From NCBI GenBank assembly GCA_044892505.1, contig CM097882.1:131812001-131854251 (forward strand): DNA of 42,251 bases, given 5' to 3'. Below the pieces are notes generated by a model, which saw only the letters and a program-made list of their open reading frames with translations, was not told where the DNA came from and did not search any database. Numbering within the stretch: position 1 is the first letter of the stretch; the number at the start of each line of letters is the position of its first letter. Of this stretch, positions 1 through 31,080 are shown one piece after another. The position numbers and the translations under genes are program-made. Source of the stretch: Schmidtea nova. Taxonomy: Eukaryota.

Positions 1-2378
1 TGTGATATCGTGGGGGGGGGGGTATTTTTTTGAAATAATATATATTTATATATATAAAAAATATTTCCAAAATTAAAATAATAACAAAAATTTTATAATT
101 TTTTTTACAAATTTTAAATTTATAAATTTTTAAGAGTTAGACAATAATAAAATCTCTAATTTTATAATATAAATTTTTGGATTCGAATTTTTATATTTTA
201 AGGAAATATATATATATATATATTAATTGTAAATTTTTCTATGAAATTTCGAATTTGGAATTTTATAAAATGACAAAATCTTTGATATAATAATAATATT
301 TTCGATTTATAATTTGCATGTGTTCCAATACAATTTTTGATTAACAATTTTTTTTATTATAAATTTTCCGCAATATAATAAAAAGTAAATTTTTATTTTT
401 ATGATCAAAAACGAAATCTACATAATAATAAATTTTTATCCACAAATTTCGCAATCCAAATAAGAATTCAATCTAAAAATTCTGTATACTAAATAAAAAT
501 AAAATTAAAATAAATTGTAAATTTTTTCAAAGAATGGTTTTCGACATCAAGTAAGGTGAATTTCGGTTTCGTTCGAGCATGAATTTCCCAACCAAAGTGC
601 GCGAGAATTTTTTGAGACACTCTACTTGGGAACTTCAGGCTCCCGAAAACAAGGTTCGCTGGAGAAAATTATTTAGATAATGAATGAGGTTTAATTCAGA
701 TCAATCAATATTTGTCTTCATAATTCGTTTCATTTCTTGATCATTATATCAGCTTTGAGCATTCTTTCAAACGATTCTCTTTCAATATTAGCTTTTTACT
801 CTACTGGTGTTTTTTGGATAAGATGGTAATTGTTGTGAGAGTGAAGGCGAATGACGAGTAGAATATTCTTGTACAATTAAACTATGTAAATGGAAAAGAC
901 ATTGATGGATGAATTGACATTTACGTTTTTATGCAGTATTAGGTTTTAAGTGCTCATTATGTAAAAAAAAATTATAATTCAAATAAACTACACTTCTATA
1001 AATTTTAGATCATTAATATAACACCTTGCCCTTGGCCAAGCCACTGTTCCCCAGTTGGGATAAAGTGATCATGGATGTTTGGGCGTATCACCTGAACTCG
1101 GAAATATGGGCTGATCGATTACGAATCTAACCAGCGATCCACTCAGGCTACTTCCACCCGCTCGGCACAAGGCCAGAAACAGGTTTCGGGGGGTATGGAA
1201 GAAAAAGGAATTATTACTTTTATCTTGGTACAATAATTATTATTATAAAATAAATTTTTATTCCATCTGAGAGTTTATGACATGATTAAATTCAAAAAAT
1301 GAAAAACAAAGAAAAACAACTTTCATTTAATATTTTGGATAATAATTAAAATTGATGATGATAATATAAGAATAATAATCAATAATATAAAATTAACAAT
1401 AATAAAATAATACTGGGTACGGGGCAGGACCGTGCCTGGCCAGTGTTCATTGCGTGTACAGCACGCAGGTGGCTTAATCAACAAGGAAATTATTAAAGAA
1501 ATTGTTTAATGAATTTGTAAAAAAAATTAGTTAATTGAAATTCTATATAAAAATATAATTTATGGAATTTTCTTAAAAAATGATTCAAATACTATTTGTA
1601 TTCATTTCAGTTTCTTCTTTATTTTTTTCTCTTTAAGAAAGTCATAAGAAATTCTTATAATAGTTGGGCCAGGCAAATCAGTCATCATCTGAAAAGTAAT
1701 ATAAAATCAATAAAATAAATTTACAAAAAACAACAACAAAATAAATTACCATCACCAAGAATGCAGCAAATAAGCGGCAGAATCTAAAAGTAACAAAGCA
1801 TAAATCAAAACAGCAATAACAATAAAAACTCACCCATGCGGAAAGCAGAAAATCTGAAAGGGCCAGCTCAACCTGAACCTTTCGCGATGGTTCATTCAAA
1901 TGACAGATGACGCAGAGCAACCTCGCTGGATACTATGCTCCGGGATCATGACAGGCTCCGGTGTAGCGACACTGGGGAAATCCAGCTCTATCCTCACGCG
2001 CCAGGGAGCGTAACATTGGAGCCCCATCCAGAGCCGAATGATCTCCGATTATGGGAGGTGTTTGCACACAAAGACAAGCTTTGTTGGCACCCGTCCCCGG
2101 AACTATACCAAGCCGACGGAAAGAGACAGGATGACCGAAACGCGGATCAAGAATTGCGACCTTTTTTCTAAGAGGAAGACGTTCGTAGCCGAACACACAA
2201 GCCCTAATGTAATTGTATCATAAATGAATAAATTTTCCTTAAAAAGTCTTGTGATGGTTTCCGAGTGATTGTCGACGAATGTTTGAGTGGATAGGAAGTG
2301 GAAGCATAATAACGACATACCTAGGGACCAACCAACAATTATGTCTTCACAACTCAGATTAAATGCCCCTTTTTGTAG

Positions 2379-2936
2379 ATGAATACGGAAAACTCTCGCG
2401 ATTACAAGAAAGAAGCATGGGAACATAAAGCCCGCTCTAAAGTTCTCGAGAGCCGATTGCGCCGGTTGAACGAAGACCACCAGCGCGTCAAAACCACTTG
2501 GTTTAACCCGGAACGGGTCAAAAAAATACTACAAGCCCGATACCGCGCCGAACGGATGGCCGAAGACCAAGCGAGAGAAATGGCCGCAGTCAAACTGGAA
2601 CTGCATAACTACCTAAAGGTATCCACGCAGGAGTTCGTCACCCAGCAATTACGCTCAATGATCCGGGCGAGTACATTCAATAGATGGGTGGACACGATGG
2701 CCATCACTACAAGTACTCAGACGGAGATAGAGTCGAACTCTACGACGACTACCCCAACCATAGCAACCCCTCTGGAAGGCTCCAAGAGGACAAGGCGTCG
2801 CAACCGCCTGGGAGCGAAGAAACGACGTGAGCGCCGAGCGTATGCCGAACGACTAGGCATTGAAGTAGATTTCTTAAGCGGACTCACTGAAAAACAGTTA
2901 TTGGATGTGATTAACCCGTCGGTATTCCTGAATTGA
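2379..2936 (+). CDS. LTR-encoded 185-aa basic protein (coiled-coil-like N-terminus, Thr-rich linker, Arg-rich motif KRTRRRNRLGAKKRRERR)
   Basis: ATG-to-TGA ORF in a GC-elevated island, intact in both LTRs with 2 aa differences. No family recognised. Confidence 0.55.
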   Translation: MNTENSRDYKKEAWEHKARSKVLESRLRRLNEDHQRVKTTWFNPERVKKILQARYRAERMAEDQAREMAAVKLELHNYLKVSTQEFVTQQLRSMIRASTFNRWVDTMAITTSTQTEIESNSTTTTPTIATPLEGSKRTRRRNRLGAKKRRERRAYAERLGIEVDFLSGLTEKQLLDVINPSVFLN

Positions 2937-3081
2937 AATAAATGTATAATAACTGATTGACTTGATTTGTGTGTCTGTGGCATGTTTGAGAAGTTAAAAA
3001 ACAAAGTAAATTAAACTGATTCATTTGAGGTCACAGGCACCCTAAACATTGAATTTACCCTAGTACAACGAGAGGAGCGCA

Positions 3082-3145
3082 TATAATTGGGACCGAAAGA
3101 AATCCACAGAAACCTTCAATCGGTAGTGGTGGACCCGTGAATAAA
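3082..3145 (+). promoter_or_regulatory. Candidate TATA-like box (TATAAT, 3082) and poly(A) signal (AATAAA, 3140) of the B LTR
   Basis: Motif order and position near the LTR 3' end fit a U3/R boundary; short motifs are weak evidence in AT-rich DNA. Confidence 0.3.
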
Positions 3146-3303
3146 CAAGGGAATAGTAGCCGCAAGGTTGCTCACCTGCCTTGTCATTTCACAACGTTGA
3201 CACAGCACCAACATGATGAGTAGTTAGGGATACATCATGGGTGTCAGCGGGGATATGTTTTTATGTTGGCGAGATCACCCTAACGTGTAAAATCTAAATG
3301 ATC

Positions 3304-3855
3304 TCAGTTGTCCATCTTTGGTGGGCATAAACACGAATGTTTTGATTGCGTTTGAATTGAGAAAAGATGCCACTTTAGGCTGTTGATCGTTCCTTTAGAT
3401 AGGTTATAGAATAAACCTGCTAGATTTGATTTGGCAGACATTAATGCTCCGTTTCCATCCGTGCGACGAACATAGATTAATGAATAGTTTAAATATTGCC
3501 CAAGGAAGTCATTGTAACGACGTCGTAGCAACATACCCAAATTAACATGATGCATAATTCCTCGGTTTGTTAATCCTCCAATCCCATTAGGCCGCTTGTC
3601 TTCCCTATTCTTATCAGTTGGATATATTATAACAGTTGCTCTATCTCCATGTCGATATAAAACATGGGCATGCAATAGTTGTTTGTCTGTAGCAGAACAC
3701 TGATAAATTTGGTAATTCACGATAAGTGTAAAGAAGCATAAAATAATCATAATCAATGTTTTTGAATATCTATTGGATATTAGCTTAATCTGAGGAGGAT
3801 TCATATTGGCATTTCTCCAATTAAAAAGATCCAAAGAGAGAATTGAATTAGGCAT
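3304..3855 (-). pseudogene. Captured histidine acid phosphatase N-terminal fragment in the 3' LTR of A (truncated copy)
   Basis: HVLYRHGDRA...GLTNRGIMHHVNLGMLLRRRYNDFL...IYVRRTD...LMSAKSNLAGLF follows the lysosomal/prostatic acid phosphatase pattern (RHGDRSP...GQLT...G...LRKRY...YIRSTD..RTLMSA..NLAALF). Confidence 0.8.
3312..3316. repeat. Target-site duplication CCATC of element A (partner at 11387-11391)
   Basis: CCATC flanks both ends of A and occurs once at the empty site in the 3' LTR of B (33911-33915). CCATCT (6 bp) is an equally valid reading. Confidence 0.9.
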
Positions 3856-4396
3856 TCAATGTAGAAGTAGATTAGAAACTATTTTATAATACAAAAAACT
3901 CTATTTCAAATAATTCAATAAATTGAATTAATTTCACAAGATATATTTTTTTAAATTAACTCTTAAACCATTTATTTTTTTAAAACAGGAATATTTACCC
4001 CAAGAATTTAAACAACAAACACCAAGTAAATAAATGTAAATGTAAAAAATTAAAATATATCATTTTTACTAATTATTTTGCCAGTTTAACCACAATGACC
4101 GATGTTTTATCGCCTGAAGAATATGAAATTTTGAAAGAAATTAATTCAATTTCTAAATGTAATGATATCAACAATTTCCAAATAATGCAAATTGTTCGAA
4201 ATTTAAACTCAACATATTCTCACGTTAGAATGAAATGTTTAAAAGTAATGGGCCAATTTATGGATCCCTTGAGTCATTTTCCATGTGGTTCATCTAATAC
4301 TTTTGATATTGTTCAGTGGTTTACGCAGGATCAATTTCATGGTTTGTGAAATATCATTTGAGAGAATTTTGGGTATCGGCTTTCTAGACCACTACA
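3319..4396 (-). repeat. 3' LTR of element A
   Basis: Matches 10309-11386 at offset 6990; only 3 substitutions spotted (3453, 3468, 3712). Minus strand starts TGTAGT and ends CACCA. Confidence 0.93.
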
Positions 4397-4408
4397 TTAG
4401 CCCCCATC
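4397..4408 (-). promoter_or_regulatory. Polypurine-tract-like sequence of element A
   Basis: Minus strand GATGGGGGCTAA directly precedes the 3' LTR start TGTAG. Confidence 0.5.
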
Positions 4409-4610
4409 GGAAGATGCGGAGCACATTTTGAATTACTATAATGTAGATACGTAATATAGTAGTTTAGTATATAATAATATGGTATTTTGTAGTGTCCAGA
4501 AAGTATTTGGAAAGAGTCGTGAATGAAATAGAATAACCTGAGAAAGAATTGCGAAAGAAATTTAGGAAACCGAAAAAAAAACTAATAGAACTTGGTGGAA
4601 AGTGGTGCAA

Positions 4611-7600
4611 TTAATTTGAATAGATTCTTATAAGTCTAGTTGTTGAATCCGGTTTTTGATTAATAGAACGGACACGAACCCATTTGTTGTAAGTGACGGA
4701 CTTTGGTTTATTTTGTGTTTGCTTAGCTTTCCTCAAAATGGGTGGTAAACGAAGTACGTCATTCGGTTCTGGGATAAACGGTATGTATTCAGATTTTTCC
4801 GTCATTTTGTTTTCTGCGTCTGATGTTTGAACAATCGGGTATGAAGGTGAGTTGTTGGAAAGATCGTCCTCAGTGGAATTGATAGGGTCATTATCGTTTG
4901 TGTGAGAGTTCGGGATTATATCGGTTTGGGTCGAGAAATTGTCAGGTGGAGGTTCATCATCGAGCAAAACTAAAGCTGGTTTAAGACGGCAGAGGTTAAA
5001 TGTTTGTGTAGCGTCGTTAACGATCACTTTCGCGTTGTTTTCTTTAATCTCGACGAGCTTGTAAGGTCCGGAATATCTTGGCTTTAAACTTGCATCAGTT
5101 ATATTTCTAATATAGACGTGTGATGCATTTTCGAATGTTTTTGGAATGTAAGGTTTATAGGTTGTCGCGGAAGAGAATTCAGGATTAGTGTCGATTGATA
5201 AAAAATGGTCTCTAGCAATCGCGAGATCTTCCAAAGTAGGAGAGTTATCAAAGTCGACAAGTTGACCTGGTAATGATGTGTTTGTACCGAAAAGTAATTG
5301 AGCAGGTGATGATCCTGTAGTCCTAGAAGGTGTATTTCGCCAACCTAATAATACGAAAGGTAAAACCTTTGTCCAACCTTGTTGTTCAGAAAGAATGCCA
5401 AGAGAAGCTTTTAAAGTACGATGGAAACGTTCGACTAACCCGTTTGTGGATGATATGTGGTCGTACGAAGATGTTGTATCCCAAGTTTAGCGGTCAAAGC
5501 TTGAAATAAGTAAGATTCAAACTGTGTTCCGCGATCACTGATGATCGACTTGGGAACTCCATATCGTGAAATCCAATTTTGAATTAGCGAAGTTGCGATG
5601 GTGTTAGAAGAAATGGTGCGTAAAGGAATGACTTCGAACCAACGAGTCTTGCGGTCGATCATGGTTAATAAGTAAGAAAAACCGCAGTCACTTGGGACTG
5701 GGCCGATGATGTCAATGTGTAAGTTTTCGAAACGGTTGCCAGTGGGATAATGAATTATTGGAGGTTTAGTGTGCTTAGTTATCTTAAAACGTTGGCATCC
5801 TATGCATTGTGCAACCCAGAGTTTAACATCATGTCTCATGTTTGGCCAAACTACACACGTGTGTAATAGATTAAAAGTGGCTGAGGAACCTGGGTGGTGC
5901 GTGTTGTGGATAGACAGAAAAGCCAGTTTTCTCATGGAGTCATTCAAGATTGGGCGAAGAGTGCCAGGAAGAGATGAGTCGTAGTGAATTTTGTCTTTGA
6001 TTATGTGTTTGTCGCCAAATTTCGAAATATCAATGGCATCTGGAGGATTATTTTGGAGTTCGTCGATAGAAAATAAAGGACAGTGGATAATTGCGTTTAC
6101 ATTTCGTGAAAGGCAATCAGCTATAATGTTATCACTGCCGGCGATGTGGTATATTTGGCAAGAAAATTCGCTAATATAGCTAATCTGGCGTTGTTGTCTC
6201 GGAGAAGGGTCTTTCATTGAGAACAAGTAAACAAGTGGCTTGTGGTCTGTATGGATGCTAAAAAGACGGCCCTCGAGTAAATGCTTAAAATGTTTAACCG
6301 ACTGGTAAATAGCGAGAAGTTCGCGGTCGAATATTTTTGTTGTGGTGAGGTAAGTTTCTTTGAGTAAAATTCTAGTGGCTCTGGGATGTAACCGTTTATC
6401 TGGTGCAAAACGGCACCGATTGCTATGTTTGACGCGTCTGTGGTTAAACGTAATGGCAAATCTCCTCGTGGATAATGCAAAGTCTGTATGTTTGAAAGGG
6501 CTGTTTTGGCATGCTCAAAAGCGAGCAACGAAGTATCGTTCCAAGGAATTATAGATTTCTTTGGTTTAGAACAGTAACCAGAAAGAGGTGAAAGAATTTC
6601 TGAAATTTTAGGAATAAAACGGTGGCAATAGTTTACTGTTCCCAGAAAACTCCGAAGTTGAGTAACAGTTTGTGGAAGAGGAAACTTAGATATAGTATCT
6701 AGTCTGTCGGATGGTGGACTGACGCCTTGACCCGAGATAATGTGACCTAAAAAACGGACTTCTTCTTTAAAAAATAAACACTTATCTAAATTAATTTGTA
6801 GGTTATTGGAAGAAAGTGCGCAAAGAACTGCATCTAAATGTTTTTTGTGTGTTTCCGCATCCTTAGAACCAATAAGGATATCGTCAATATAAGGAATTGC
6901 GAATGGTAAATCCATTAAAATATGGTCGATGTGTCTTTGAAAGGTTTGAGCGGAATTTCTAAGGCCAAACGGCATGAAAACGTACTCAAAAAGTCCGATA
7001 GAGGTGTTAAAACTGCGGTTTTTTCCACGTCAGATTCTTTAACTGGGATTTGGTGATAGGCCTTAACTAAGTCGATAGTTGAAAATATTTTGGCCTCGGT
7101 AAGTCTGTACAAAATGTCGTTTACTAAAGGCATAGAATATGAGTCGTGAACCGTAATCATATTTAAACGACGATAATCTCCACAAGGTCTGAAAGTTCCG
7201 TCTTTCTTTGGTACGAGATGAAGTGGTGAAGACCATGGAGATTTAGATCTTTTTATAATGCCTTCGTTCAACAAAGTAGCGAATTCGGAGCGAACAAAAT
7301 CTAGTTTTTCGTTCGAAAGAGGGCGTACTTTACAACGTACCGGAAGAGAGTTTGTGGTGTTGATAGTATGGCAGTAAGATGTTACAGAGACTTGCTTTCG
7401 TAAAGGCATTGTTTGTGAAAATGTGTATTTATTTAAAATGTCTGTAGCAATCTTTGGATGAATGGGTTGAATGGCAGTAGATACAGAAACGTCAGATGAG
7501 TCGGAAATGTTGAGTTTTTTTGTGTCAATGATTAAAGACGAATTTGTGTGCGAATGTGTTCTCAAAAGGCGTGAACGACAATCGACCAACAAATTGTGTG

Positions 7601-7960
7601 AACTCAAAAAGTCTGAGCCAAGAATGGGATGGATAACGTCAGCGACACAGAACTTCCATATAAAAGATTGATTTAAAGAAGGAAGAACGAAATTTGCTGA
7701 AAAAGAACCGTGTGTATTTACCATGGTTCCGTTGGCGGCTTTCAAGGTATAAACGGAATCATCGCAAAGAGATTCATATTGTAAAGGAAGAATGGAGAGG
7801 CTGGATCCTGTGTCAACAAGAAAATCGAGAGTACTGCAAAAGTTCGGAGCAACGCTGAAAGAAGGGGATTCAGCTCTCACTAGAAATAAATCGAGTGCAG
7901 GAGGTAATTTGCCATCAACTTCAGCCGCAATGAGTGATGGCATTACAAGTTTTTTTGAAT
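4611..7960 (-). pseudogene. pol: pol of element A (protease, RT, RNase H, integrase with GPY/F), broken by 3 frameshifts (~7005, ~6325, ~5440)
   Basis: FLVDTGSS (PR); WSSPLHLVPKKDG, GDYRRLN, DLVKAYHQIP, MPFGLRN, YIDD (RT); TDASNIAIGAVL, FYSKKL, TDHKPL (RH); HHCC, HIDIIGP, ISDRGTQF, VERFHR and GPYK (IN). Confidence 0.95.
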
Positions 7961-9186
7961 GTTGTTTGGAGAAGATGGTGGGGAATTGTAGGATTTGCAA
8001 CCTACGATGCATTTGTTTGCTTTATCCCCAAATCGTGCGTGATAAATGCACTTATCAATGATTTTTAGGGTAGCTACTTTGTTTCGCCAGCCACATCCTA
8101 TGTTGCAACAATTTGCTTTCGTCCCATATTTGGTATGATAAAAGCAAATGTTTGAATAAGCCGGGGATTTGGAACGTCGTCGGTCAAACGCATTGGAAAG
8201 TGATGCATTTCGAGACGGAGATTTATGACGTTCCAAATGCGAAATACTATCGGTAAGGTCGCGAATGGCGCAAAGAAGAGCGTTTTCTGTTGATGATGGG
8301 ATCGGCGGGCTTGCGATAGGAAGGCTATTGACAGATGAGCCTGGTGTACCACCTAACGGAACAATTTCATGAATTTTGTCCGCCATTTTTGCTAATTCGT
8401 GTATATCTACCGGAGACGATAAAGCAAGTATCTGTTGTGTGTGTGTGTCGGAAGTACACTTAAAAAGAACTGGCGTAGCATGTTTTGGTCGGGTGCTGTC
8501 CCATTTTGCATTTGTTCGAGGTCTGTAAAAGCCTTCTACAAAAATTCTGTCGGCTTACAACTTCCTAAAGATTGGGCTTTGAAATATTTTGAGAATATTT
8601 CCTGTTTGGGGACTTTAAATAAATCCAGCAGTCCTGTGCTGAGCTCCTCAAAAGGGGTTAAAAAGGTTTTTTGCGTTGTGCGGCGAATAACGGCAGAAAG
8701 GCGGCCTAAATGTTCCTGTGGGATGAGAGATAATATTCTATAGAATTTATCTCTTGAAGAAGTAACGCCGCAACTTTCTAAAAGGGCTTCGAGTGTGAGT
8801 AACCAAGTTGATGGTGATTGGTTCTCATCTAAAAAGAACGGACAATTAATATTTTGTCTAGAGTTACTGTCGGAAGAAGCAGCGCCTCGAACATTTCTTT
8901 GCTTTTTAGGCAAAGGTTTGGGCTTTTTATCGTCGTATTCGTTGTCATCATCTATACTTGATGGTGCGCCGCTATACAATGGTACATGACAGAACAGCAA
9001 AGAATCCGAACATATGTCAGAACTTAAAAGTGAGTCCTGATTCCTTAATATTGCGCCATTATAAGATATGTATGTCGGTCCCTCGTACGACAAGCGCTTG
9101 CATATTAATGTAGATAGTTTTGATATAGTCGTGTCCTGGGCTAGTTTGAAGTGGAATGTGAAGGAGGAAACCCTTACGAATATTGA
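7943..9186 (-). pseudogene. gag: Ubiquitin-like domain (8968-9186) fused to Gag of element A; one in-frame TAG at 8536-8538; two CHCC motifs
   Basis: PFFLDENQSPSTWLLTLEALL..CGVTSSRDKFYRILSLIP is the capsid N-terminus typical of this gypsy group. The frame continues past the TAG into ORF 7943-8386 with CFYHTKYGTKANCCNIGC and CIYHARFGDKANKCIVGC. The true start codon is not identified. Confidence 0.8.
7949..7955 (-). promoter_or_regulatory. -1 ribosomal frameshift slippery heptamer A AAA AAC at the gag/pol junction of A
   Basis: Gag frame reads CAA AAA AAC TTG TAA; a -1 shift gives AAA AAA CTT GTA ATG, which is the pol frame. Confidence 0.7.
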
Positions 9187-9540
9187 CAAAGACCTATAGG
9201 ATATGCGACGTAGCTTAAAATTCGGAAGGTTGGGCGGCTCCGTTAATTTTAATAATAATGATTTTAATAATAATGATATAAATAATAATAATATATAATA
9301 ATAGAAATTTAATATAATAAAATATGCTAACGTAACTCCGCAGCGATAATGGGGGCTGATCTTCTGTTCCGAAAAGAGAAGAAAATCTGTTAATATTGGA
9401 ATTTCTGTGACTTTTGAATTTAATGGAGCTTTTAATAGGTAATTATCGTTGTTGGTGTTAAAGTTCATTTTCGAGGGAGCTGGTGAAAAAATTACGATAG
9501 ATTTGATGTTATTGCAATTTTTCATGTTGATTTGTGTTGC

Positions 9541-10845
9541 TTACGATGTTTGACCAATTGAATTGTATCCCTGTGGCTTAACACCTAGCGGTGTGCAAGG
9601 AAACTGCTTTTGAAAGTCATTAATCAATTGTTGAGCGACTTTGGAATCCGTTTGAATAAGAGAAAAATTGGGATTTACTGGCGTTGAATTTACTGGTTTT
9701 GGATTCTGCTGAGGAATCGATCGATTTATCGCTTCTAATATTTGAACGTCGACGTTAATCATTGAAAGAACTGTAGAATTTTGATTCTGTGGAGAGACTG
9801 GAGATGAACTTATTGTTATTGCTGACAGACTCCTATTCGTTGAATTGTTGACGATTAAAGACTGATTAGGGGCTGTAGAGTTGCTAGCATCTGATATATG
9901 ATTGTTAGCTTGTTTGGATTTATCACTTTGTAAGATTAAATTCTGTTGTATTAAATATAAAGCCTGTCGAATGTTAGTGGCTGAGTCTTGTGAACTGGTT
10001 GGAATTCTTATCATTTGCGCACAGTCTAATGGAATTTGAGAGTTTTGATTTACTTGCAATGGGGTTGGAATTATAGGAATTGACGGTTGATTTTGTCGAT
10101 TGATTAAATGCATCGGAGGAGGTGGTGGTTGCATTGCAGCTGCAATTCGCTTAACGACTTCAATTTGACTAAGCGTGCTTGCATTATTAGAATTAGATGA
10201 GTTTAATTGAAGTGAATTTTTCATTATTGCTGGATGTTGTGAGACTTGGGGACGAAATGTTTGATTTCCATCTTGAATTGGAGATTGGTTTTCCTCTGAC
10301 ACCATTTTTGGTGGGCATAAACACGAATGTTTTGATTGCGTTTGAATTGAGAAAAGATGCCACTTTAGGCTGTTGATCGTTCCTTTAGATAGGTTATAGA
10401 ATAAACCTGCTAGATTTGATTTGGCAGACATTAATGCTCCGTCTCCATCCGTGCGACAAACATAGATTAATGAATAGTTTAAATATTGCCCAAGGAAGTC
10501 ATTGTAACGACGTCGTAGCAACATACCCAAATTAACATGATGCATAATTCCTCGGTTTGTTAATCCTCCAATCCCATTAGGCCGCTTGTCTTCCCTATTC
10601 TTATCAGTTGGATATATTATAACAGTTGCTCTATCTCCATGTCGATATAAAACATGGGCATGCAATAGTTGTTTGTCTGTAGCAGAACACTGATAAATTT
10701 GATAATTCACGATAAGTGTAAAGAAGCATAAAATAATCATAATCAATGTTTTTGAATATCTATTGGATATTAGCTTAATCTGAGGAGGATTCATATTGGC
10801 ATTTCTCCAATTAAAAAGATCCAAAGAGAGAATTGAATTAGGCAT
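9541..10845 (-). CDS. 434-aa chimeric ORF: signal/anchor + truncated acid phosphatase + Q/N/S/P-rich low-complexity tail; starts in the 5' LTR of A and reads through the PBS
   Basis: Uninterrupted ATG-TAA frame; hydrophobic LIMIILCFFTLIV, RHGDR motif, then 255 aa of low-complexity host-like sequence. Translation is not demonstrated. Confidence 0.55.
   Translation of the reverse strand: MPNSILSLDLFNWRNANMNPPQIKLISNRYSKTLIMIILCFFTLIVNYQIYQCSATDKQLLHAHVLYRHGDRATVIIYPTDKNREDKRPNGIGGLTNRGIMHHVNLGMLLRRRYNDFLGQYLNYSLIYVCRTDGDGALMSAKSNLAGLFYNLSKGTINSLKWHLFSIQTQSKHSCLCPPKMVSEENQSPIQDGNQTFRPQVSQHPAIMKNSLQLNSSNSNNASTLSQIEVVKRIAAAMQPPPPPMHLINRQNQPSIPIIPTPLQVNQNSQIPLDCAQMIRIPTSSQDSATNIRQALYLIQQNLILQSDKSKQANNHISDASNSTAPNQSLIVNNSTNRSLSAITISSSPVSPQNQNSTVLSMINVDVQILEAINRSIPQQNPKPVNSTPVNPNFSLIQTDSKVAQQLINDFQKQFPCTPLGVKPQGYNSIGQTS
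10295..10304 (-). promoter_or_regulatory. Primer-binding site of element A (tRNA-Leu-like)
   Basis: TGGTGTCAGA begins 4 nt after the LTR CA and is complementary to a tRNA-Leu 3' end (...UCUGACACCA). Confidence 0.65.
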
Positions 10846-11386
10846 TCAATGTAGAAGTAGATTAGAAACTATTTTATAATACAAAAAACTCTATTTCAAA
10901 TAATTCAATAAATTGAATTAATTTCACAAGATATATTTTTTTAAATTAACTCTTAAACCATTTATTTTTTTAAAACAGGAATATTTACCCCAAGAATTTA
11001 AACAACAAACACCAAGTAAATAAATGTAAATGTAAAAAATTAAAATATATCATTTTTACTAATTATTTTGCCAGTTTAACCACAATGACCGATGTTTTAT
11101 CGCCTGAAGAATATGAAATTTTGAAAGAAATTAATTCAATTTCTAAATGTAATGATATCAACAATTTCCAAATAATGCAAATTGTTCGAAATTTAAACTC
11201 AACATATTCTCACGTTAGAATGAAATGTTTAAAAGTAATGGGCCAATTTATGGATCCCTTGAGTCATTTTCCATGTGGTTCATCTAATACTTTTGATATT
11301 GTTCAGTGGTTTACGCAGGATCAATTTCATGGTTTGTGAAATATCATTTGAGAGAATTTTGGGTATCGGCTTTCTAGACCACTACA
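10309..11386 (-). repeat. 5' LTR of element A
   Basis: Direct repeat of 3319-4396, followed on the minus strand by the PBS. Confidence 0.93.
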
Positions 11387-11414
11387 CCATCTAACCAACA
11401 CACCAGCATAAATT

Positions 11415-11432
11415 TGGGGGCTCAGCCGGGAT
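11415..11432 (+). promoter_or_regulatory. Primer-binding site of element B (tRNA-Pro)
   Basis: TGGGGGCTCAGCCGGGAT matches the tRNA-Pro PBS TGGGGGCTCGTCCGGGAT at 16/18 and lies exactly where identity with the 3' LTR ends. Confidence 0.85.
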
Positions 11433-11968
11433 TAAATCGATCTTTGTGGGAATAAGTAAATTCAATACCAGCGGACAGTTTTAGAGCGCCTGAACCGGGA
11501 TGAAATTAATGTTTGCGGAGAAAAGCGAATTGAATAACAACGGAGGGTTTGAGGGTCCTGAAGCAAGAATGAATAGGGTTGAAAAATAATAAATAAAAGT
11601 ATGAGTGTGAAATAAGGAAATGATGAGCATGATAAAAGTATGCATGAGAACGAAAGTATGAATATAAAGAATGTGAAAGTATGAGTATGAATGAAATTAC
11701 GAGGAATAGTATGTGAGATAACGGTTTGAAAAGACACGAAAAGTATGAATGACGTAATGTAAAAGTATGTTGAAAGGGATGTATGAAAATGATATGAGTG
11801 TGAGCAACTAACAATGATCATGTCGAGGCGACATTCAAGAACACGGGGGGATACGCAAGTAACAACGCAAAACAGAACAACAGAAAGCGAACAGTAGGGC
11901 TACCATATAATAAGAATAATAAATAATAAATAAAAATCGACAGAAACTAATGAAAATTCATTCAGGGG

Positions 11969-12409
11969 ATGCAGAACAGAGTAAAGGAAATGCAAACGTT
12001 TTTCGAGACAAACAGCGAGACAGTGGAGACAATAATGGGAAAGTTAAGACGACTCGAGGTGGTAGGATATCACGAACCGACAAACAACACAGAAAGAGCC
12101 GAAATGATGATAAACATATGTGAGAAAAGGAGCACAATTGAGACAGCAACGCGATACAAATGGTACTGAGAAAGATTACACCACCCTGAAATGAATATCG
12201 AGTGCCACAGGCTAGAACAACAGTTAACAACAAAACATGACGAGTGGATGAGAATAACAACAGAACATACGAGACAATATCTGACGTGTTATATCTGTGA
12301 AATAAACAAAATACAGATAATGTTGTTGCCATGTGGGCATTTTCGATTCTGTAATGACTGTAAAATAAATGAACGATGTCCTATGTGCAACCTCCCCGTA
12401 TCTGAATGA
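11969..12409 (+). pseudogene. IAP/XIAP-type C3HC4 RING finger ORF (~146 aa) in the B leader; one in-frame TGA at 12167-12169
   Basis: CYICEINKIQIMLLPCGHFRFCNDCKINERCPMC = C-x2-C-x11-C-x-H-x3-C-x2-C-x5-C-x2-C. ORFs 11969-12169 and 12191-12409 are in one frame. Confidence 0.8.
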
Positions 12410-13089
12410 ATAACAGTGTACTTGTAATAAAAATAAAGGTTTTGAACAAGTACAGTTGTTGTTGAAATTATGAGGGTTTAACAATGATTTGGTAAAAATG
12501 ACCTAAGTAATTATGAGCTACTTACGAGTAGTCCGGTAAGCACCCATTGGGGGGAACCAACTGATCAACTTACCCGAGATGTGTAGAAAGTAGCCAATCG
12601 CGGATATTGGAAAGCTCTTGTGATGTGACTGATCACCACATCCCGCATCAGTAGACCAATGCGATCTTTTATATATTTTGGTTGGGGTGAAAGGTAGGGA
12701 CAACTCAACGAGGGTTAGGCGCGCGCAGAAAAATGTAAAAATAGGATGATAAACTGATCAATAAAGAGAGAGAGAAAGCAATGAAATGAGTAAGATGAAT
12801 AGAGAAATGTGGTATATGATGAAAGGCACGTAATCAGCTCGCATAAAGTAAAATCAAGTAGAGAGGTTGATGAATCAATAATAGAATAAAGGGGTGTAAT
12901 GGATGAACCGAGTAAATCGAAAACTCGAGGTCAAATGAATTCCTTGAAAGAAAGGAAATAATAAAAGGGGTCCTAAAGAGAAAGGATTTGCCCATAGTTC
13001 TTGAAAGATAGGACTTAACGAAACGCGACAATAGATTCTCCGAAGAAGCATAAGCAACCACTGAGAGATGATATTTCGAGTTTTCGTTG

Positions 13090-13534
13090 GTGAGCATAGG
13101 TCTCATAGTGAGCATAGGTCTCGTTATTAAACATAACATCATAGTGAGCATAGGTCTCGGCAGTAAACACAACATCGCAGTGAGCACGGTTCTCGTCAGT
13201 AAACCTAAGTCTCGTAGTGAGCAGAGTTCTCATCAATAAACGTAAGTCCTAGCAGCGAACATAGTCCTCATCAGTGAGCGTAGTTCTCATCAATAAACCT
13301 AGTCATCGTAGTGAGCTTAGTTCTCATCAGGAAACATAACTCCTGTAGTAAAAATATTCTTCGTCAGTGAGCATAGTTCTCATCAGGGAACATAGTTCCC
13401 GGAGTGAGCAAAGTTCTCATCAACAAACATAATCTTCATAACAACCATGTGATTACCAGTGAGCATAATTCTCGTCATTGAGCATAGTTCTCGTTAGTGA
13501 GCATAGTTCTCAGCTGTGAGCATAGTTCTCGTCC
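13090..13534 (+). repeat. Minisatellite of ~23 copies of an 18-19-nt unit (consensus GTGAGCATAGTTCTCRTCA, often alternating with a GTAAAC variant)
   Basis: Unit starts seen at 13090, 13108, 13144, 13180, 13217, 13274, 13311, 13367, 13404, 13459. Confidence 0.85.
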
Positions 13535-13876
13535 AAAGTAAAATATTGAGTAAAAGCCCACGAGAAAGACGACGAAGTGAGGCAAAAGAGGACTAAATAA
13601 AGTATAAAACTATCCGGATAGTAGAGATAAACGAGCAATATTGGAGATGAATAAAGGAGAGTAGAGACGAATAATGGATAATGAAGATAAACGACGAATA
13701 GTGAAAATGAATAGCGAATAATGAGGAATAATGGTTGAAAGAAACCGAATTAATAATGAAAGAGTTGAAGGTGCGCACCTGGGTATTGATAAATGCGAGT
13801 AAAGCTGATGACGTAGCCTAATGACGTTAAAGTATGCATACAGAGAGGAGTAATAAAGTAAAGTAAGTAAGTGAAA

Positions 13877-14264
13877 GGTGCTGACTGGAAAACCCAGCAG
13901 ACCATGAGATTCGAGGAGAGTAAAACGAACCGGTTTGGAAAAACAGGTAAAGTGGTAAAGACGCTGGCTGGAAAACCCAGCAGGTCAATGATAACGATCA
14001 GAGAAGATCGAGAGAATAAAAGTGAGTAATAATAGGAAGAATGGTGAAATTGAGGACGCTGACTGGAAGACCCAGCAGGTCAAAAGTGATGATCATCGGA
14101 GTAAAGAGCAGTAAAAGTCGATAGTAAAAGGATAAATGGGGGGGGGTAATAAAAGCGCTGACTGGAAAACCCAGCAGGCTAATGAGAATGAGCGAAGTCG
14201 AGAGTAACAAAAATTCGAGATAAAAGGTGAGAGTAAAGGTGCTGACTGGAAAGCCCAGCAGGCC
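13877..14264 (+). other. Array of five 27-nt bulged RNA hairpins NNN-g-CTG-r-CTGG-[AARRC]-CCAG-CAG-N'N'N'
   Basis: Copies at 13877, 13960, 14055, 14154, 14238; the basal 3 bp differ in sequence but stay complementary in all five. Confidence 0.8.
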
Positions 14265-15160
14265 AACAAGAGATGTTAGTTGAATTAAAGGTGAGTAGAG
14301 ATGAGAGTTAAAAGGAAGTAGTAAACGTAGTGTGAATAAAGAATAAAGTGAGTAGTCGAGAAACAGAGTAGTCGACAGATAAGGGGAAATTTGAACTCAG
14401 AGCCAGAGAAGCCTGAGAAAAGTAAAGGGTATAGTAAGAGCGCTGAGCGACAAAGTAATTGGGAAACTGGGGAAAAGTAATTGGTGTATTTGATAAAGTA
14501 TAGATAATTGATACGACTGCATAGATAATTTAAATAGACTTAAAATCAAGGGAAATGGGACAAATGGGGATCTTCATGAATTATGACTACACCCGTGAGA
14601 GGGACGAGAAACACGATAACGGAGACGTATCGTGTAAGTGATTATTTGTTTTAAGGAAACAAATCAATCAAGCAATTCAAAGCAATCTAGCAGTCAGAAC
14701 AATCAAAGGAAACAAGTCAAAGAAGAAGCAAAGCAAAAGCAAAGTAGATAACCAGTTGAGAATATAAGAAGTTGAGCGATAGACAAAATTGAGGAACGTG
14801 AAACAAGAAACGGTACAATACCGATCCTAACAGAAGCCGAAAGAAAAGCAGAAAAAAAGGCAAGAGCAGTGAATAAAGCAGCGCAACTAAAGAATAAACG
14901 AGTAGAGATCAGTGATAACTTGAGTAATAAAGAGAACCAAGAAGAAACCCCAGAGAATCCAGAAGTACGAAACGAAGTAGAAACGAAGTAGAAACGAAGT
15001 AGAAACGATAGACAGTGAACTAGTCAGTGAAAACAGAACAAGAAGCGAATCAAGAGATAACGAAGTAGAGAGTAGCGACAAAGAAGGATTAAACCCAGAA
15101 ATAAGTGGTGAACTAGAAGTAAATGGAACTAGTACAGCATTCCAAGACAGTGGAATCGGG

Positions 15161-16153
15161 ATGAGTGATCACAGAGAGGATCTGAGAGAAAAATTCAAGG
15201 GTGAACCATTCAATGGAGACGCCAGTAGATTGGACACGTTTCTAAAGGAATTTGGCATATTCGTGGATATATGCGGATGGAGTGCAGAAACGTTAGCGAA
15301 TCGAATCCCGCTATACTTGAAAGATAGCGCATTGAATCTGTATATCGAAAAGAGATCTGGAAGTAGTCCACCCAAAACGTGGGAAACGATCAAGGAGTTC
15401 TTCCAGCAAACGTTTGGGATAAATAAAGTGTTAAACGAAGCATTCGATGAATTCTCAGCAAGAAAACAAAGGAGAAATGAGTCAAATGCGGTGTACGCAA
15501 GTGAATTAAGAAAGTTGGCGAAACTGGCATTCAATAGAGGAAGTCCAGTAGACGAGGAATTGATGACATCATTATTCGTACGAGGTCTCACGAGACCTGA
15601 CATCAGAGCACAAGTGGGATGCAAAGGATGTAAAACAGTAGATGAAGCGTTGGAAGCAGCCAACCTATTCGAATTGCATATAGCAATGAACGACATGAGA
15701 ATTATGGCGGTAATGGAAAAAACGACAGAAGATGAAGAACAAGGAAAAAGAAACATGAATCAAAGCATTCCCCATTCGCAGAGATTGTTCAAAGAACCGC
15801 CAGCGAGGAAAAATAACGGATATATTACAGTAAACACGAATGGAGGAAACAGTTACAACGACAGGCAGAATAGGCAATGTCAGACGTGCGGAAAAAACGG
15901 ACATTGGCAACAAGATTGTTTTCAGAACGTAGCCTGTAAACTGTGTGGACAAAAAGGTCATTCAGAGAATCGATGTTATGGGAAAACGTGTTACACATGT
16001 GGAAAAACCGGACACATGTCAAGAGAGTGTAACCAACAGAGAAGTTGGAAAAAGACAGTGGAAAAAGACAGAATTACGGAAATCGACCAAGTTATGGGAA
16101 TCAGGGTCAACAACGTAACAACCCAAATAGCAGTGCAAACGAAGCCAGTATGA
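15161..16153 (+). CDS. gag: Gag of element B (capsid + three CCHC zinc knuckles); true frame probably shifts at ~16047 into ORF 16045-16332
   Basis: FNGDASRLDTFLKEF..W..IPLYLKDSA..TWETIKEFFQQTF..KQRRNESNAVY..LFVRGL; CQTCGKNGHWQQDC, CKLCGQKGHSENRC, CYTCGKTGHMSREC. Confidence 0.93.
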   Translation: MSDHREDLREKFKGEPFNGDASRLDTFLKEFGIFVDICGWSAETLANRIPLYLKDSALNLYIEKRSGSSPPKTWETIKEFFQQTFGINKVLNEAFDEFSARKQRRNESNAVYASELRKLAKLAFNRGSPVDEELMTSLFVRGLTRPDIRAQVGCKGCKTVDEALEAANLFELHIAMNDMRIMAVMEKTTEDEEQGKRNMNQSIPHSQRLFKEPPARKNNGYITVNTNGGNSYNDRQNRQCQTCGKNGHWQQDCFQNVACKLCGQKGHSENRCYGKTCYTCGKTGHMSRECNQQRSWKKTVEKDRITEIDQVMGIRVNNVTTQIAVQTKPV

Positions 16154-19584: not shown

Positions 19585-19990
19585 GGGGAAGAATGGCTCA
19601 CCAAAACGATAATGAATGTGTTAGCGATAATTGATCCAGAATTAAAGAATTTGTGGCGGAAAAACGAACCTAGTACAAAGGCAAAGATGCTACACAATGC
19701 AATAGCACCGATTATGCCAGAATTAATTAAAGCGAAAACAAAATCGAATCATCTAGATTGGCAAGGAACCACGATGTTAATAAAAAGGCTACTCAACGGA
19801 GCAGAGACGGACAGCAAATATTTAGTGGCAATCTCGTATACGATATACAACCTGTTAACGCTAAGCCAAGGAAGTCCGGAGTAAACTCCGATGGGAAGAC
19901 ATATCAAGATCACGGCGATGATTATCGAGAAAGAAATCGAACCATATATCCTCAGAAAAGGAGGATGGGAAAAGTTCATAAAAGAGAACC
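19585..19990 (+). pseudogene. Bcl-2-like domain spanning the in-frame TAA at 19882-19884
   Basis: BH2-like EKEIEPYILRKGGWEKFIKE vs Bcl-xL NDHLEPWIQENGGWDTFVEL; BH1-like LLNGAETDSKYLVAI vs LFRDGVNWGRIVAF, with matching helix spacing. Confidence 0.6.
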
Positions 19991-28146: not shown

Positions 28147-28593
28147 TTGAGACCAGAAATGTTGTGCATCGCGATATTGATAACAATCATCGGACAAGGA
28201 GAAGCCAGGAAACAATACGTCACGCTAGAAATAATTAGAGAAAATGAAGTATACGAAAGAATATGCTGGAAAGAAAACCTGAGTAAAAACGAAACGCTTA
28301 AGTGTATATTGTCAGATTTGAAGCGAGACGTCATCCAAATCAAAGGATTGGAGAAAGAAAAATCATACATAATATGCGTAATAAAGCAGAGAGGAGAACC
28401 AAAAGCACCTCAAGTAACTGCATGTCAATTATACAAAGCAACGGAAGCGCTGAAAATACAGAAATGGATTGAGAAAAGAAGCGAAGAGACAACGAGAAGA
28501 ACAGAAGTGGAACCAGAGAAAGGGAAGAATCAAACCAAAGCAGGAGAAGGAATCAGAAACCGAACAGAGAAAGAAAGAATAACCAAAAATTAA
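28147..28593 (+). CDS. Small predicted secreted glycoprotein (signal MLCIAILITIIGQGEA, 4 further Cys, NLS and NET sequons)
   Basis: Same frame as ORF 26944-28125, 21 nt after its TGA. Its stop lies 4 nt from the deletion junction, so it may be truncated. Confidence 0.5.
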   Translation: MRPEMLCIAILITIIGQGEARKQYVTLEIIRENEVYERICWKENLSKNETLKCILSDLKRDVIQIKGLEKEKSYIICVIKQRGEPKAPQVTACQLYKATEALKIQKWIEKRSEETTRRTEVEPEKGKNQTKAGEGIRNRTEKERITKN

Positions 28594-28597
28594 CAGA

Positions 28598-31080
28598 TGT
28601 TTGGGCGTATCACCTGAACTCGGAAATATGGGCTGATCGATTACGAATCTAACCAGCGATCCACTCAGGCTACTTCCACCCGCTCGGCACAAGGCCAGAA
28701 ACAGGTTTCGGGGGGTATGGAAGAAAAAGGAATTATTACTTTTATCTTGGTACAATAATTATTATTATAAAATAAATTTTTATTCCATCTGAGAGTTTAT
28801 GACATGATTAAATTCAAAAAATGAAAAACAAAGAAAAACAACTTTCATTTAATATTTTGGATAATAATTAAAATTGATGATGATAATATAAGAATAATAA
28901 TCAATAATATAAAATTAACAATAATAAAATAATACTGGGTACGGGGCGTGGCCTGGCCAGTGTTCATTGCGTGCGCAGCACGCAGGTGGCTTAATCAACA
29001 AGGAAATTATTAAAGAAATTGTTTAATGAATTTGTAAAAAAAGTTAGTTAATTGAAATTTTATATAAAAATATAATTTATGGAATTTTCTTAAAAAATGA
29101 TTCAAATACTATTTGTATTCATTTCAGTTTCTTCTTTATTTTTTTCTCTTTAAGAAAGTCATAAGAAATTCTTATAATTGTTGGGCTAGGCAAATCAGTC
29201 ATCATCTGAAAAGTAATATAAAATCAATAAAATAAATTTACAAAAAACAACAACAAAATAAATTACCATCACCAAGAATGCAGCAAATAAGCGGCAGAAT
29301 CTAAAAGTAATAAAGCATAAATCAAAACAGCAATAACAATAAAAACTCACCCATGCGGAAAGCAGAAAATCTGAAAGGGCGTGGGCAGACATCACCAAGA
29401 ACCTGAAAAAATAAAGCAAATAATAACGAAAGATTTATGCATGAGTAAACAAACAACTTACTGAATTAAATCATGCAGAAAAACTGACGAACATAAATGA
29501 GTAACAATAAATACACACATACTTGATGCTGATTGGCCAGCCAACATCACAAATTTAGTATAAATACTGAAGCAAAATCACTATGAGATATATCATTTTT
29601 TACCGAGTGAAATTGTCAGTGAAACCCGATACTGTAACTTTGTGAAATCTAGGTGTATCGAAATAAAAGTTAAAGTTGATTGCATTATTACTTATTTTGA
29701 ACCCTCATAATCATACTAAAATCAATAAGGATCGTCCCGAAGGCCTAACGGTCTGACGGGATTCTCGGCCTCTCGGCACAACATATTTTCATATGAGGTG
29801 CCGATGCGGCGGGACTCTAGGTGTAATAAACTATTTATCGATCGGGAGTGGGGTGCACATGGGATATCGAGAAACGGCGGGTCAGCAAATTTCATCCGAG
29901 GTAGAGTTAAGCTAGACTATATATTACAGGCCCCAGAGAACCCAAGAGGAGGGAGTGCACATAAGATGTAGTGAATCGATGAGTCGAACGTATATCCAAC
30001 CCTATGCATACAATCGATAATAAACATCATGATTTACCGAGAATTAGAGGCGAGGGACCACCAAAGTTTTAGGCAGTTGGTGCATGTACATCTCATATAG
30101 GAGTTAACATTTACGGGATTCGGAGCCCAGATTAACCCTAACGAGCAAAGATCATTGGTAGATACAGATAGGCTGATGACAAAATGATGAGGTATGCATG
30201 GTGCAGATAGAGATAAAAATTTACAAATAAGTAATACAATAAATGACGGTATATTGATCATGTGTGATTAGAATGACTGAAAATAAATTTTAACTAAATC
30301 AACAACTGGTGATCAGCAGTAGCAATAACATCATCCTACACGGTCTATTTCACCGACCGAAATATGGTTAACCGGATGGATACTAGACACCCACTTAGCT
30401 GTGAACAACAAAATCGCCAATCTGCGTGGAAGGATCCACTATAAATAGAATCCAGCATCACTAATGAATATTCAACCAAATTATTTACAGATGAAACGCG
30501 AAAGCCTTATCACCTCGATGCCAACTTCGTCTCTCCCGCAGCAACCAGGTCACGATAAGACGAATCGGAAACGCACCCGATCTATGCCGGAGCGACATGC
30601 AGATGACCAAAGACAAGTGGAATTGCAGGGGGTGAAAGACGCACCCATTCCGATTGTCCGCCAAGCTCACTGACACCTCCGCAGATGGAGACAACGACAC
30701 TCTAATCCAGCGGCCAGAGTCGCATCATGTTCGTTTACGTTCCGACTACGATGGGAAGGAGATGCGGAGTGGATGTCATCGTTGAGCCAGCTCAACCTGA
30801 ACCTTTCGCGATGGTTCATTCAAATGACAGATGACGCAGAGCAACCTCGCTGGATACTATGCTCCGAGATCATGACAGGCCCCGGTGAAGCGACACTGGG
30901 GAAATCCAGCTCTATCCTCACGCGCCAGGGAGCGTAACATTGGAGCCCCATCCAGAGCCGAATGATCTCCGATTATGAAAGGTGTTTGCACACAAAGACA
31001 AGCTTGCGACCTTTTTTCTAAGAGGAAGACGTTCGTAGCCGAACAAACAAGCCCCAATGTAATTGTATCATAAATGAATA
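28598..31080 (+). repeat. Partial, variant copy of the B LTR (equivalent to 1076-2230) with a 1.4-kb extra segment (29381-30787) and a ~75-bp deletion near 31005
   Basis: 28598-29380 matches 1076-1863; 30788-31080 matches 1864-2230. Confidence 0.85.

Follow-up and report, generated by a model that had tools for sequence, protein, structure and literature searches.

A conserved array of bulged hairpins in the leader of a Burro-like giant gypsy element as a putative multivalent protein-binding site

The element and its leader

The window, by which we mean the whole stretch of 42,251 nucleotides analysed here, carries on its plus strand a giant Ty3/gypsy LTR element, and it is within the leader of this element that an array of five hairpins is located. 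Pfam searches of the window copy returned the order retrotransposon gag with CCHC zinc knuckles, mononegaviral-type fusion glycoprotein, protease, reverse transcriptase, RNase H, integrase and ankyrin repeats, with the env-like fusion glycoprotein (PF24664, 19891-22000) lying between gag and the protease and reverse transcriptase. This copy is defective, its polyprotein being broken into pieces, and it diverges from other copies past position 28590. Among the 16 window proteins no Pfam match was obtained for BCL2-like, MATH or BIR domains; a stretch near 19900 is presumably BH2-like, an ORF end in another copy is what we take to be MATH-like, and a BIR domain found in the sister family B is absent from the window copy. 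RNAs of giant gypsy elements of this kind are 25-30 kb long, A-rich and endowed with many accessory genes. Such elements have been described in dugesiid planarians as Burro or GYPSM1, with env located between gag and pol, and a figure legend in the available excerpt of that review marks tandem repeats in Burro (PMC6431247). The shared layout makes a flatworm of this group the likely host. In S. mediterranea, PIWI knockdown increases the amount of Burro RNA (PMC8532177).

The flanks of the window copy have been disturbed. A second gypsy element of about 8 kb is inserted in the 5' LTR on the minus strand (3316-11385), with 1085-bp LTRs that are 99.6% identical and a 5-bp duplication; it carries an LTR ORF with a histidine-phosphatase fragment and a gag region with a ubiquitin-like domain. 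Besides, a 99.4% duplicate relates 478-3317 to 31077-33916. It begins about 1.2 kb before the point where the LTR usually starts (about 1660), and the 3' duplicate is in turn preceded by another partial copy of the LTR (28596-31080), which points to a rearranged 3' end. The features of the LTR, leader and gag region are the following:

2379..2936 (second copy 32978-33535), plus strand: 185-aa LTR protein, coiled-coil-like in its N-terminal half, with an arginine-rich motif
11415..11432, plus strand: primer-binding site (PBS), common to at least six families
11969..12409, plus strand: RING-finger accessory ORF, stop-interrupted in the window copy, with an acceptor-like site before it and AATAAA after it
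12504..12760, plus strand: conserved domain for which structure is predicted; identity of 73-88% in families D, E and F
12622..12642, plus strand: palindrome-loop hairpin, 6-bp stem and 9-nt loop with TGATCA
12824..12844, plus strand: 5' arm of a long-range helix, predicted with 21 bp and enclosing the upstream short-repeat array
13091..13535, plus strand: upstream short-repeat array, 13 weak hairpin-like units of -0.6 to -4.0 kcal/mol
13793..13819, plus strand: 3' arm of the predicted long-range helix, about 60 nt upstream of the start of the hairpin array
14643..14655, plus strand: U-rich tract ending in AG (acceptor-like), 387-398 nt past the last hairpin in most copies
14776..16153, plus strand: gag region with three CCHC knuckles, first ATG at 15161, frame broken upstream of the ATG in the window copy

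The PBS, which we take to be tRNA-Pro-like, has 2863 matches in the genome, 30 of which were sorted into family A, to which the window belongs, and five others (B to F). The leader that follows is about 3.7 kb long and contains an ORF and family-specific repeats, with the hairpin array 2.46 kb downstream of the PBS. In 68 other copies the RING ORF encodes 152 aa, counted from the first Met. The TGATCA-loop hairpin is present in all six families in three stem versions that covary; a 6-nt palindrome within a 9-nt hairpin loop is the geometry of the HIV-1 dimer-initiation site (DIS), and by this analogy the hairpin is a candidate for the same role. The predicted long-range helix (21 bp, 5-nt bulge) would span 0.3-1.5 kb of variable repeats, and both of its arms were found in 101 of 116 family-A loci, with compensatory differences in D and E. 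An Rfam scan of 10800-15300 gave no match over the array and two weak snoRNA matches elsewhere (E 0.64 and 0.85).

The acceptor-like tract occupies the same position in all six families and ends in AAG in family A and in TAG in the sisters. AGs that follow a U-rich tract account for 2 of the 396 leader AGs in A, including the 14655 site, and for 1-2 of 260-449 in C-F, while in the AT-microsatellite-rich family B the site is present as one of 11-13 such. Acceptor-like sites also precede the RING ORF and, directly, the ATG of the LTR ORF. A conserved splice donor was looked for and not found, and the post-acceptor sequence joined to a non-U-rich upstream, as in a spliced retrocopy, had 0 genome matches, which is uninformative either way. 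The acceptor at 14655 is probably used; since the array lies upstream of it, the hairpins would then be restricted to unspliced genomic RNA, and splicing there would yield a gag-pol mRNA without the array. Trans-splicing at this site is also conceivable. As for gag itself, its frame (14776-15160) is open upstream of the first ATG and devoid of in-frame ATGs over 121 codons in 58 copies and 149 codons in at least 25 copies (116-197 codons in C-F), and an AAA ATT G conserved in A, D, E and F is a candidate non-AUG start. In flatworms a spliced leader can supply the AUG, a reading of the gag start that was dropped because stops intervene after the acceptor.

The hairpins in the window, the family and its sisters

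The array itself consists of five units:

13877..13903, plus strand: hairpin unit 1, basal helix GGT/ACC, loop AAAAC
13960..13986, plus strand: hairpin unit 2, basal helix GAC/GTC, bulge shiftable by one position
14055..14081, plus strand: hairpin unit 3, basal helix GAC/GTC, loop AAGAC
14154..14180, plus strand: hairpin unit 4, basal helix AGC/GCT, present in two copies in most six-unit elements
14238..14264, plus strand: hairpin unit 5, basal helix GGT/GCC with a U-G wobble, loop AAAGC

Each unit is 27 nt long and has two bulges on its 5' arm, the start-to-start spacing is 83, 95, 99 and 84 nt, and no sixth unit was matched on either strand of the whole window. Every unit folds as (((.(((.((((.....)))))))))) with -12.1 to -12.7 kcal/mol, and all five folds are retained in the centroid of 0.5-kb and 1-kb contexts, with pair probabilities of 0.72-0.99 except for one unit-2 pair at 0.39, where the bulge has two possible registers. 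The five bulged hairpins are thus those drawn by an earlier sequence-only reading, with the same basal helices, loops and spacing of 83-99 nt, and they fold both alone and in context. The same reading had set them in unstructured purine-rich linkers. The linkers are indeed 76% purine (192/253 nt), and they are mostly open, with a mean pairing of 0.33 and 63% of positions below 0.3, but a few weak small hairpins form in them. The core motif has 535 exact genome matches against 0 for a reversed control, which argues that the array is not a product of chance; regional folding gave z = -2.7 (60 shuffles), and of the 120 ways to re-pair the five 5' basal halves with the five 3' ones, only 4 preserve all 15 pairs.

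Conservation in the family was surveyed starting from a genome search with the leader RING ORF, which gave 150 matches. A total of 116 family-A loci were examined, 8 chosen by the motif, 28 by DNA similarity (including the window) and 80 by their RING match, the last group being selected regardless of hairpin presence. The hairpin was found in 110 of the 116 copies, with 614 units in total: six units in 77 copies, five in 24, four in 3, seven in 2, one or two in 4 and none in 6, so that 101 copies have five or six. Unit spacing is 84-97 nt (5-95% of 504 gaps). All ten pairs are intact in 519 units and nine of ten in another 83, the bulged G is kept in 600 and the first loop A in 613, and in unit 2 the purine bulge is displaced by one base in 90 units with zero pairs lost.

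Double-sided changes were observed at five pairs across these 110 copies. Three of them distinguish unit types, namely 1-27 (G-C in 386 units, A-U in 183), 2-26 (395 versus 205) and 3-25 (C-G in 472, U-A in 107, U-G in 29); the other two are 9-21 (580 versus 16, the 16 being last units, and U-G in 7) and 11-19 (593 versus 7, the 7 being second units). The sister families supply a sixth, pair 10-20, which is C-G in D, E and F and U-A in A. All six double changes are G-C/A-U transitions, with G-U intermediates at all five within-family pairs, and the unit types form a star in which each is one compensated pair away from GGC/GCC, each at a different position. The claim that the basal helices differ by compensatory changes needs a qualification: pairing is kept, but the changes do not amount to five independent ones, since the basal types are common to the most diverged copies, which reduces them to three ancestral double changes.

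Selection on pairing was assessed on the premise that insertions decay neutrally, singletons representing mutation and shared alleles the variation tolerated by replicating lineages. Alleles found in at least 3 of the 77 six-unit copies were compared with singletons, and the ratio of shared to single was 3/35 for stem-breaking, 6/8 for stem-keeping, 98/110 for linker and 128/178 for outer-flank alleles (3/48 and 8/12 for stem-breaking and stem-keeping alleles when all units are taken), with few shared breaks at each of the six unit positions. Stem-breaking alleles differ from those of the linkers (p=1.6e-6), whose counts are perhaps inflated by misalignment, as well as from the outer flanks (p=1.4e-5) and the stem-keeping class (p=0.008), and the latter behaves like the linkers (p=0.79). 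Pair-breaking variants are thus mostly singletons and pair-keeping ones are linker-like, which indicates a constraint on pairing. A tree-based comparison of internal and terminal branches by parsimony counts was not significant (p=0.25 and 0.11), probably owing to recombination; internal branches carry 9 stem-breaking changes over 120 columns and 181 linker changes over 305 columns. The rule of kept pairing is broken most clearly in the last unit, where 32 of 106 have A-C at the outermost pair; this mismatch has arisen repeatedly on the tree, represents a chimera of two unit types and becomes a wobble if read on the minus strand. Both strands fold about equally well, so folding energy leaves the strand undecided, while the sense strand is supported by G-U wobbles, which occur in the family F hairpin as well as in frequent forms of the long-range helix. 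Taken together, the 110 copies and the sister families make it very likely that an RNA-type structure is under selection for its pairing, in line with what had been proposed from the window alone, and the modelled fold very probably forms in the sense RNA.

To search 49 sources, a covariance model was built from 11 distinct natural units picked by hand. Six of its 10 pairs show double changes, to which no probability attaches because the units were chosen for variety. The model recovered the five window units and hits in D, E and F (E 4e-11 to 0.002), being significant in exactly families A, D, E and F; in family C the corresponding position reached only E=1.8. Across the 49 sources, no hit came from family B or from smaller env- or BCL2-bearing gypsy families, whose leaders are short. 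Families D, E and F have one homologous hairpin each, in the same place and without the basal helix. It is retained in 30 of 30 copies of family D, whereas in family F it is decaying, the upper four-pair stem being kept in 12 of 30 copies, weakened in 12 and unmatched in 6. The decay in F, the barely detectable match in C and the lack of any in B imply that the hairpin is dispensable in part of the clade. Instead, it is other hairpin modules that have multiplied in the leaders of the sisters, reaching about 20 units and in some cases showing compensatory changes of their own. These include 5-bp stems with G-N-A-rich hexaloops and 30-nt internal-loop hairpins with covarying basal pairs (loci L276, oriented 1370-1950, L279, L280 and L288). 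Family B is very abundant and has a 399-aa BIR ORF, several further 3' accessory ORFs, mostly behind acceptor-like sites, and a leader RING ORF, and in the copies examined its main ORF starts without a recognisable gag. The smaller gypsy families consist of single ORFs of about 3000-3400 aa, with env- or BCL2-like domains inside the polyprotein.

Candidate ligands and the role of the array

The likeliest reading of these hairpins is a multivalent protein-binding array. It is quite likely that some protein reads it, and fairly likely that it serves as a multivalent tag on the unspliced genomic RNA, export and packaging being taken together. Two other roles named in the sequence-only reading lose ground. 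Dimerisation is unlikely, as the loops lack self-complementarity and a palindrome-loop hairpin exists elsewhere, at 12622-12642; the position of the array, upstream of a conserved acceptor-like site, makes control of gag translation less likely.

A fair candidate for the ligand is the 185-aa protein encoded in the LTR, given that arginine-rich peptides are known to bind bulged hairpins, as established for Tat-TAR and Rev-RRE. Homologs with 21-28% identity, a helical N-terminal half and the arginine-rich motif are found in D, E and F; none was detected in the B loci or in four C LTR stretches examined, and one sits in the leader of the C-type locus L275. Protein and significant hairpin hence occur in the same four families (A, D, E and F), and family B has neither in the loci examined, a co-occurrence drawn from six related families, which does not amount to a test of co-evolution. 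The LTR ORF had no match in 3 of 8 family-A LTR stretches, and it is absent from the 3' half of a young copy with LTRs 99.9-100% identical and six hairpins. A young array-bearing copy without the ORF means that the protein is not required in cis and could act only in trans; its loss fits a trans-acting factor, but the real ligand could just as well be Gag or a host protein. The LTR protein, for its part, could have another of the conserved leader structures as its target. No canonical export signal could be identified in it, and the spacing of its leucine-rich tail is, we assume, off that of canonical CRM1-type signals.

Searches placed this protein in no known group. It has no Pfam relative, only weak coiled-coil matches in PDB (E 0.13 or worse) and Atlas scores of 0.76 or lower, and neither it nor Gag has relatives in a 90% protein collection. 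A profile of 7 LTR-protein sequences gave one weak match (E 3e-4), the 407-aa protein P0001 from another source, which shares a WFxPE motif and an arginine-rich tail with it. A bZIP reading of the basic motif was dropped, the consensus Asn not being kept in D and E. Elsewhere in the LTR, a second ORF (about 1950-2200), Trp-rich and 158-224 aa long, precedes the arginine-rich ORF in A, D and E and is broken in the window, and family-A LTRs are either long with both ORFs or short (about 1.6 kb) with neither (L381, L383, L394 and L396). The 3' end of the LTR (about 3040-3315 and 33640-33935) holds a block of about 250 nt that is conserved in A and C-F, has its start visible in B and looks structured, and neither this block nor a family-A LTR matched Rfam.

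According to the mechanism that we favour, the hairpins on the unspliced genomic RNA would be lined-up landing sites for the arginine-rich protein that the element itself encodes in its LTR; acting in trans, this protein would accompany the RNA on its way out of the nucleus, much like Rev bound to the RRE. On this account a single ancestral hairpin was amplified in tandem to give the array, and avidity would rise as a result. Export of this Rev/RRE-like kind by the LTR protein is possible, and we put it forward tentatively. The broader proposal, that the Burro clade of gypsy elements independently evolved the scheme of complex retroviruses, with spliced accessory mRNAs, an LTR-encoded arginine-rich trans-acting protein and a cognate leader-intron hairpin amplified 4-7-fold in family A so that gene-less copies capture the protein in trans, is unlikely to hold in full.

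Packaging would assign the array to Gag, whose three CCHC knuckles would bind repeated hairpins with flipped-out G and A and nucleate on unspliced RNA; family-specific arrays would then let each Gag choose its own genome among co-resident sisters. The placement of the array between PBS and gag, 3' of the palindrome-loop hairpin and 5' of the gag acceptor-like site, speaks for it, as retroviral packaging signals are located between PBS and gag in the leader (PMC5035971). Moreover, every copy needs Gag, so that loss of the LTR ORF costs nothing, and other hairpin modules have been amplified in the same leader of sister families. Nucleocapsid usually reads G-rich loops, whereas those of the array are A-rich and variable in sequence and length between families, and families B and C replicate even though the hairpin is lacking in one and hardly detectable in the other. 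We place this role only a little behind export in likelihood. Recruitment of a host protein, either a CTE-like export receptor or splicing factors that restrain the weak downstream acceptor so that the RNA stays unspliced, requires no element-encoded ligand, and in its favour YGCY, presumably a muscleblind-type motif, lies over the bulged G in 593 of 614 units. The AAG end of the acceptor in family A, against TAG in the sisters, agrees with it, as do donor-like GT(A/G)AGT hexamers, on average 2.8 per 862 nt from array to acceptor versus 0.3 per 1381 nt upstream (97 copies), although these derive partly from the same duplications and the purine-rich composition. We regard it as improbable considering that YGCY is not retained in the D, E and F hairpins, that D and E have no donor-like hexamer near theirs and that Rfam gave no match.

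If a single hairpin were functional and the extra ones were products of reverse-transcriptase slippage, folded only to avoid mispairing in a purine-rich leader, their number would be irrelevant; a single copy suffices in D and E, every family has module arrays made by slippage (up to about 20 units) and a terminal mismatch is tolerated in the last unit. This is nevertheless quite improbable in view of the few shared breaks at all six unit positions, the conserved bulged bases and the narrow copy number and spacing, whereas the upstream array spans roughly 0.3-1.5 kb. A motif acting at the DNA level, such as inverted sites for a dimeric factor or cDNA hairpins, or a covariation artefact of quasi-palindrome template switching, would fit a core that is near-palindromic, strands that fold similarly and the fact that the two pairs that vary most have A-C (37) no less often than G-U (29). 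Both bulges remain on the 5' arm, though, where template switching would tend to erase them; the six double changes are all transitions with G-U intermediates as described above, and pair-keeping changes are tolerated while pair-breaking ones are not, unlike in a DNA site read by its sequence. We therefore consider this reading highly improbable.

A literature search on the element and on leader hairpins returned no account of the array, and the supplements of the original Burro paper may describe these repeats. If the broader proposal is true, a Rev/RRE-like system would exist outside retroviruses, in a modular leader where each sister family amplifies a different hairpin, and with the LTR protein as partner Rev-like regulation would have arisen separately in Metaviridae. 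The question bears on how gypsy RNAs of 25-30 kb are told from their own spliced mRNAs, exported and packaged, and it can be addressed with short fragments, given a precisely bounded small motif, natural compensatory variants, a single-copy sister form and a candidate partner. Whatever that partner is, the array shows that RNA structures under selection can hide among the tandem repeats of leaders, which as a rule are annotated simply as repeats.

Comparison with known RNA elements

In the available excerpt of the review on Burro and GYPSM1, these elements share with the window element the CCHC knuckles of gag, the fusion glycoprotein before the protease, the protease to integrase order, the ankyrin repeats and the accessory ORFs, and the description given there does not include RNA structure, a hairpin array, acceptor sites or an arginine-rich LTR protein, which are present or predicted here (PMC6431247). 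The Rev/RRE, Rex/RxRE and Rec/RcRE systems resemble the array in having a structured cis element, predicted in our case only on unspliced RNA, and an element-encoded arginine-rich protein, here with an acceptor-like site before its ATG; as characterised in the excerpts considered, their response elements are single branched structures of 350-430 nt in env or U3, in contrast to five separate small hairpins in a 5' leader (PMC3856414, PMC11379458). Sequence and Rfam comparisons showed no similarity between the two. The CTE, which binds NXF1, likewise gave no match to a described transport element in the Rfam scan.

Signals for packaging and dimerisation, as outlined in part of the source cited, compare with the leader through their location between PBS and gag (PBS at 11415, array at 13877-14264, gag ATG at 15161) and through long-range leader pairing (PMC5035971). 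The likeness to a DIS lies in the nearby 12622-12642 hairpin with its 6-nt palindrome and 9-nt loop, and not in the array, whose loops are A-rich and non-palindromic; the leader also differs from that of a retroviral packaging signal in being 3.7 kb long, with an ORF inside and family-specific repeats. TAR (HIV, BIV) and the MS2 and PP7 operators are alike in shape only, as short stems with single-nucleotide 5' bulges, the PP7 operator having a similar bulged A four pairs below a 5-6-nt loop. TAR is placed at the 5' end of the transcript, in the R region, whereas the array is 2.46 kb downstream of the PBS, and in the LTR loci searched the model had no match except one (E=0.57); the MS2 and PP7 operators lie over a start codon, and the array does not. 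Egl-BicD signals, including the ILS of the I factor, are bulged stem-loops in retrotransposon RNA that work in more than one copy, but as portrayed in the excerpt at hand they require 3'-strand bulges and spaced U-A pairs, while the array has 5' bulges only and a G-C-rich 10-bp stem (PMC13186709). Overall, the array would appear to act like the known retroviral cis elements, but where features that define RRE, TAR, DIS, CTE and Egl signals were tested, it does not have them.
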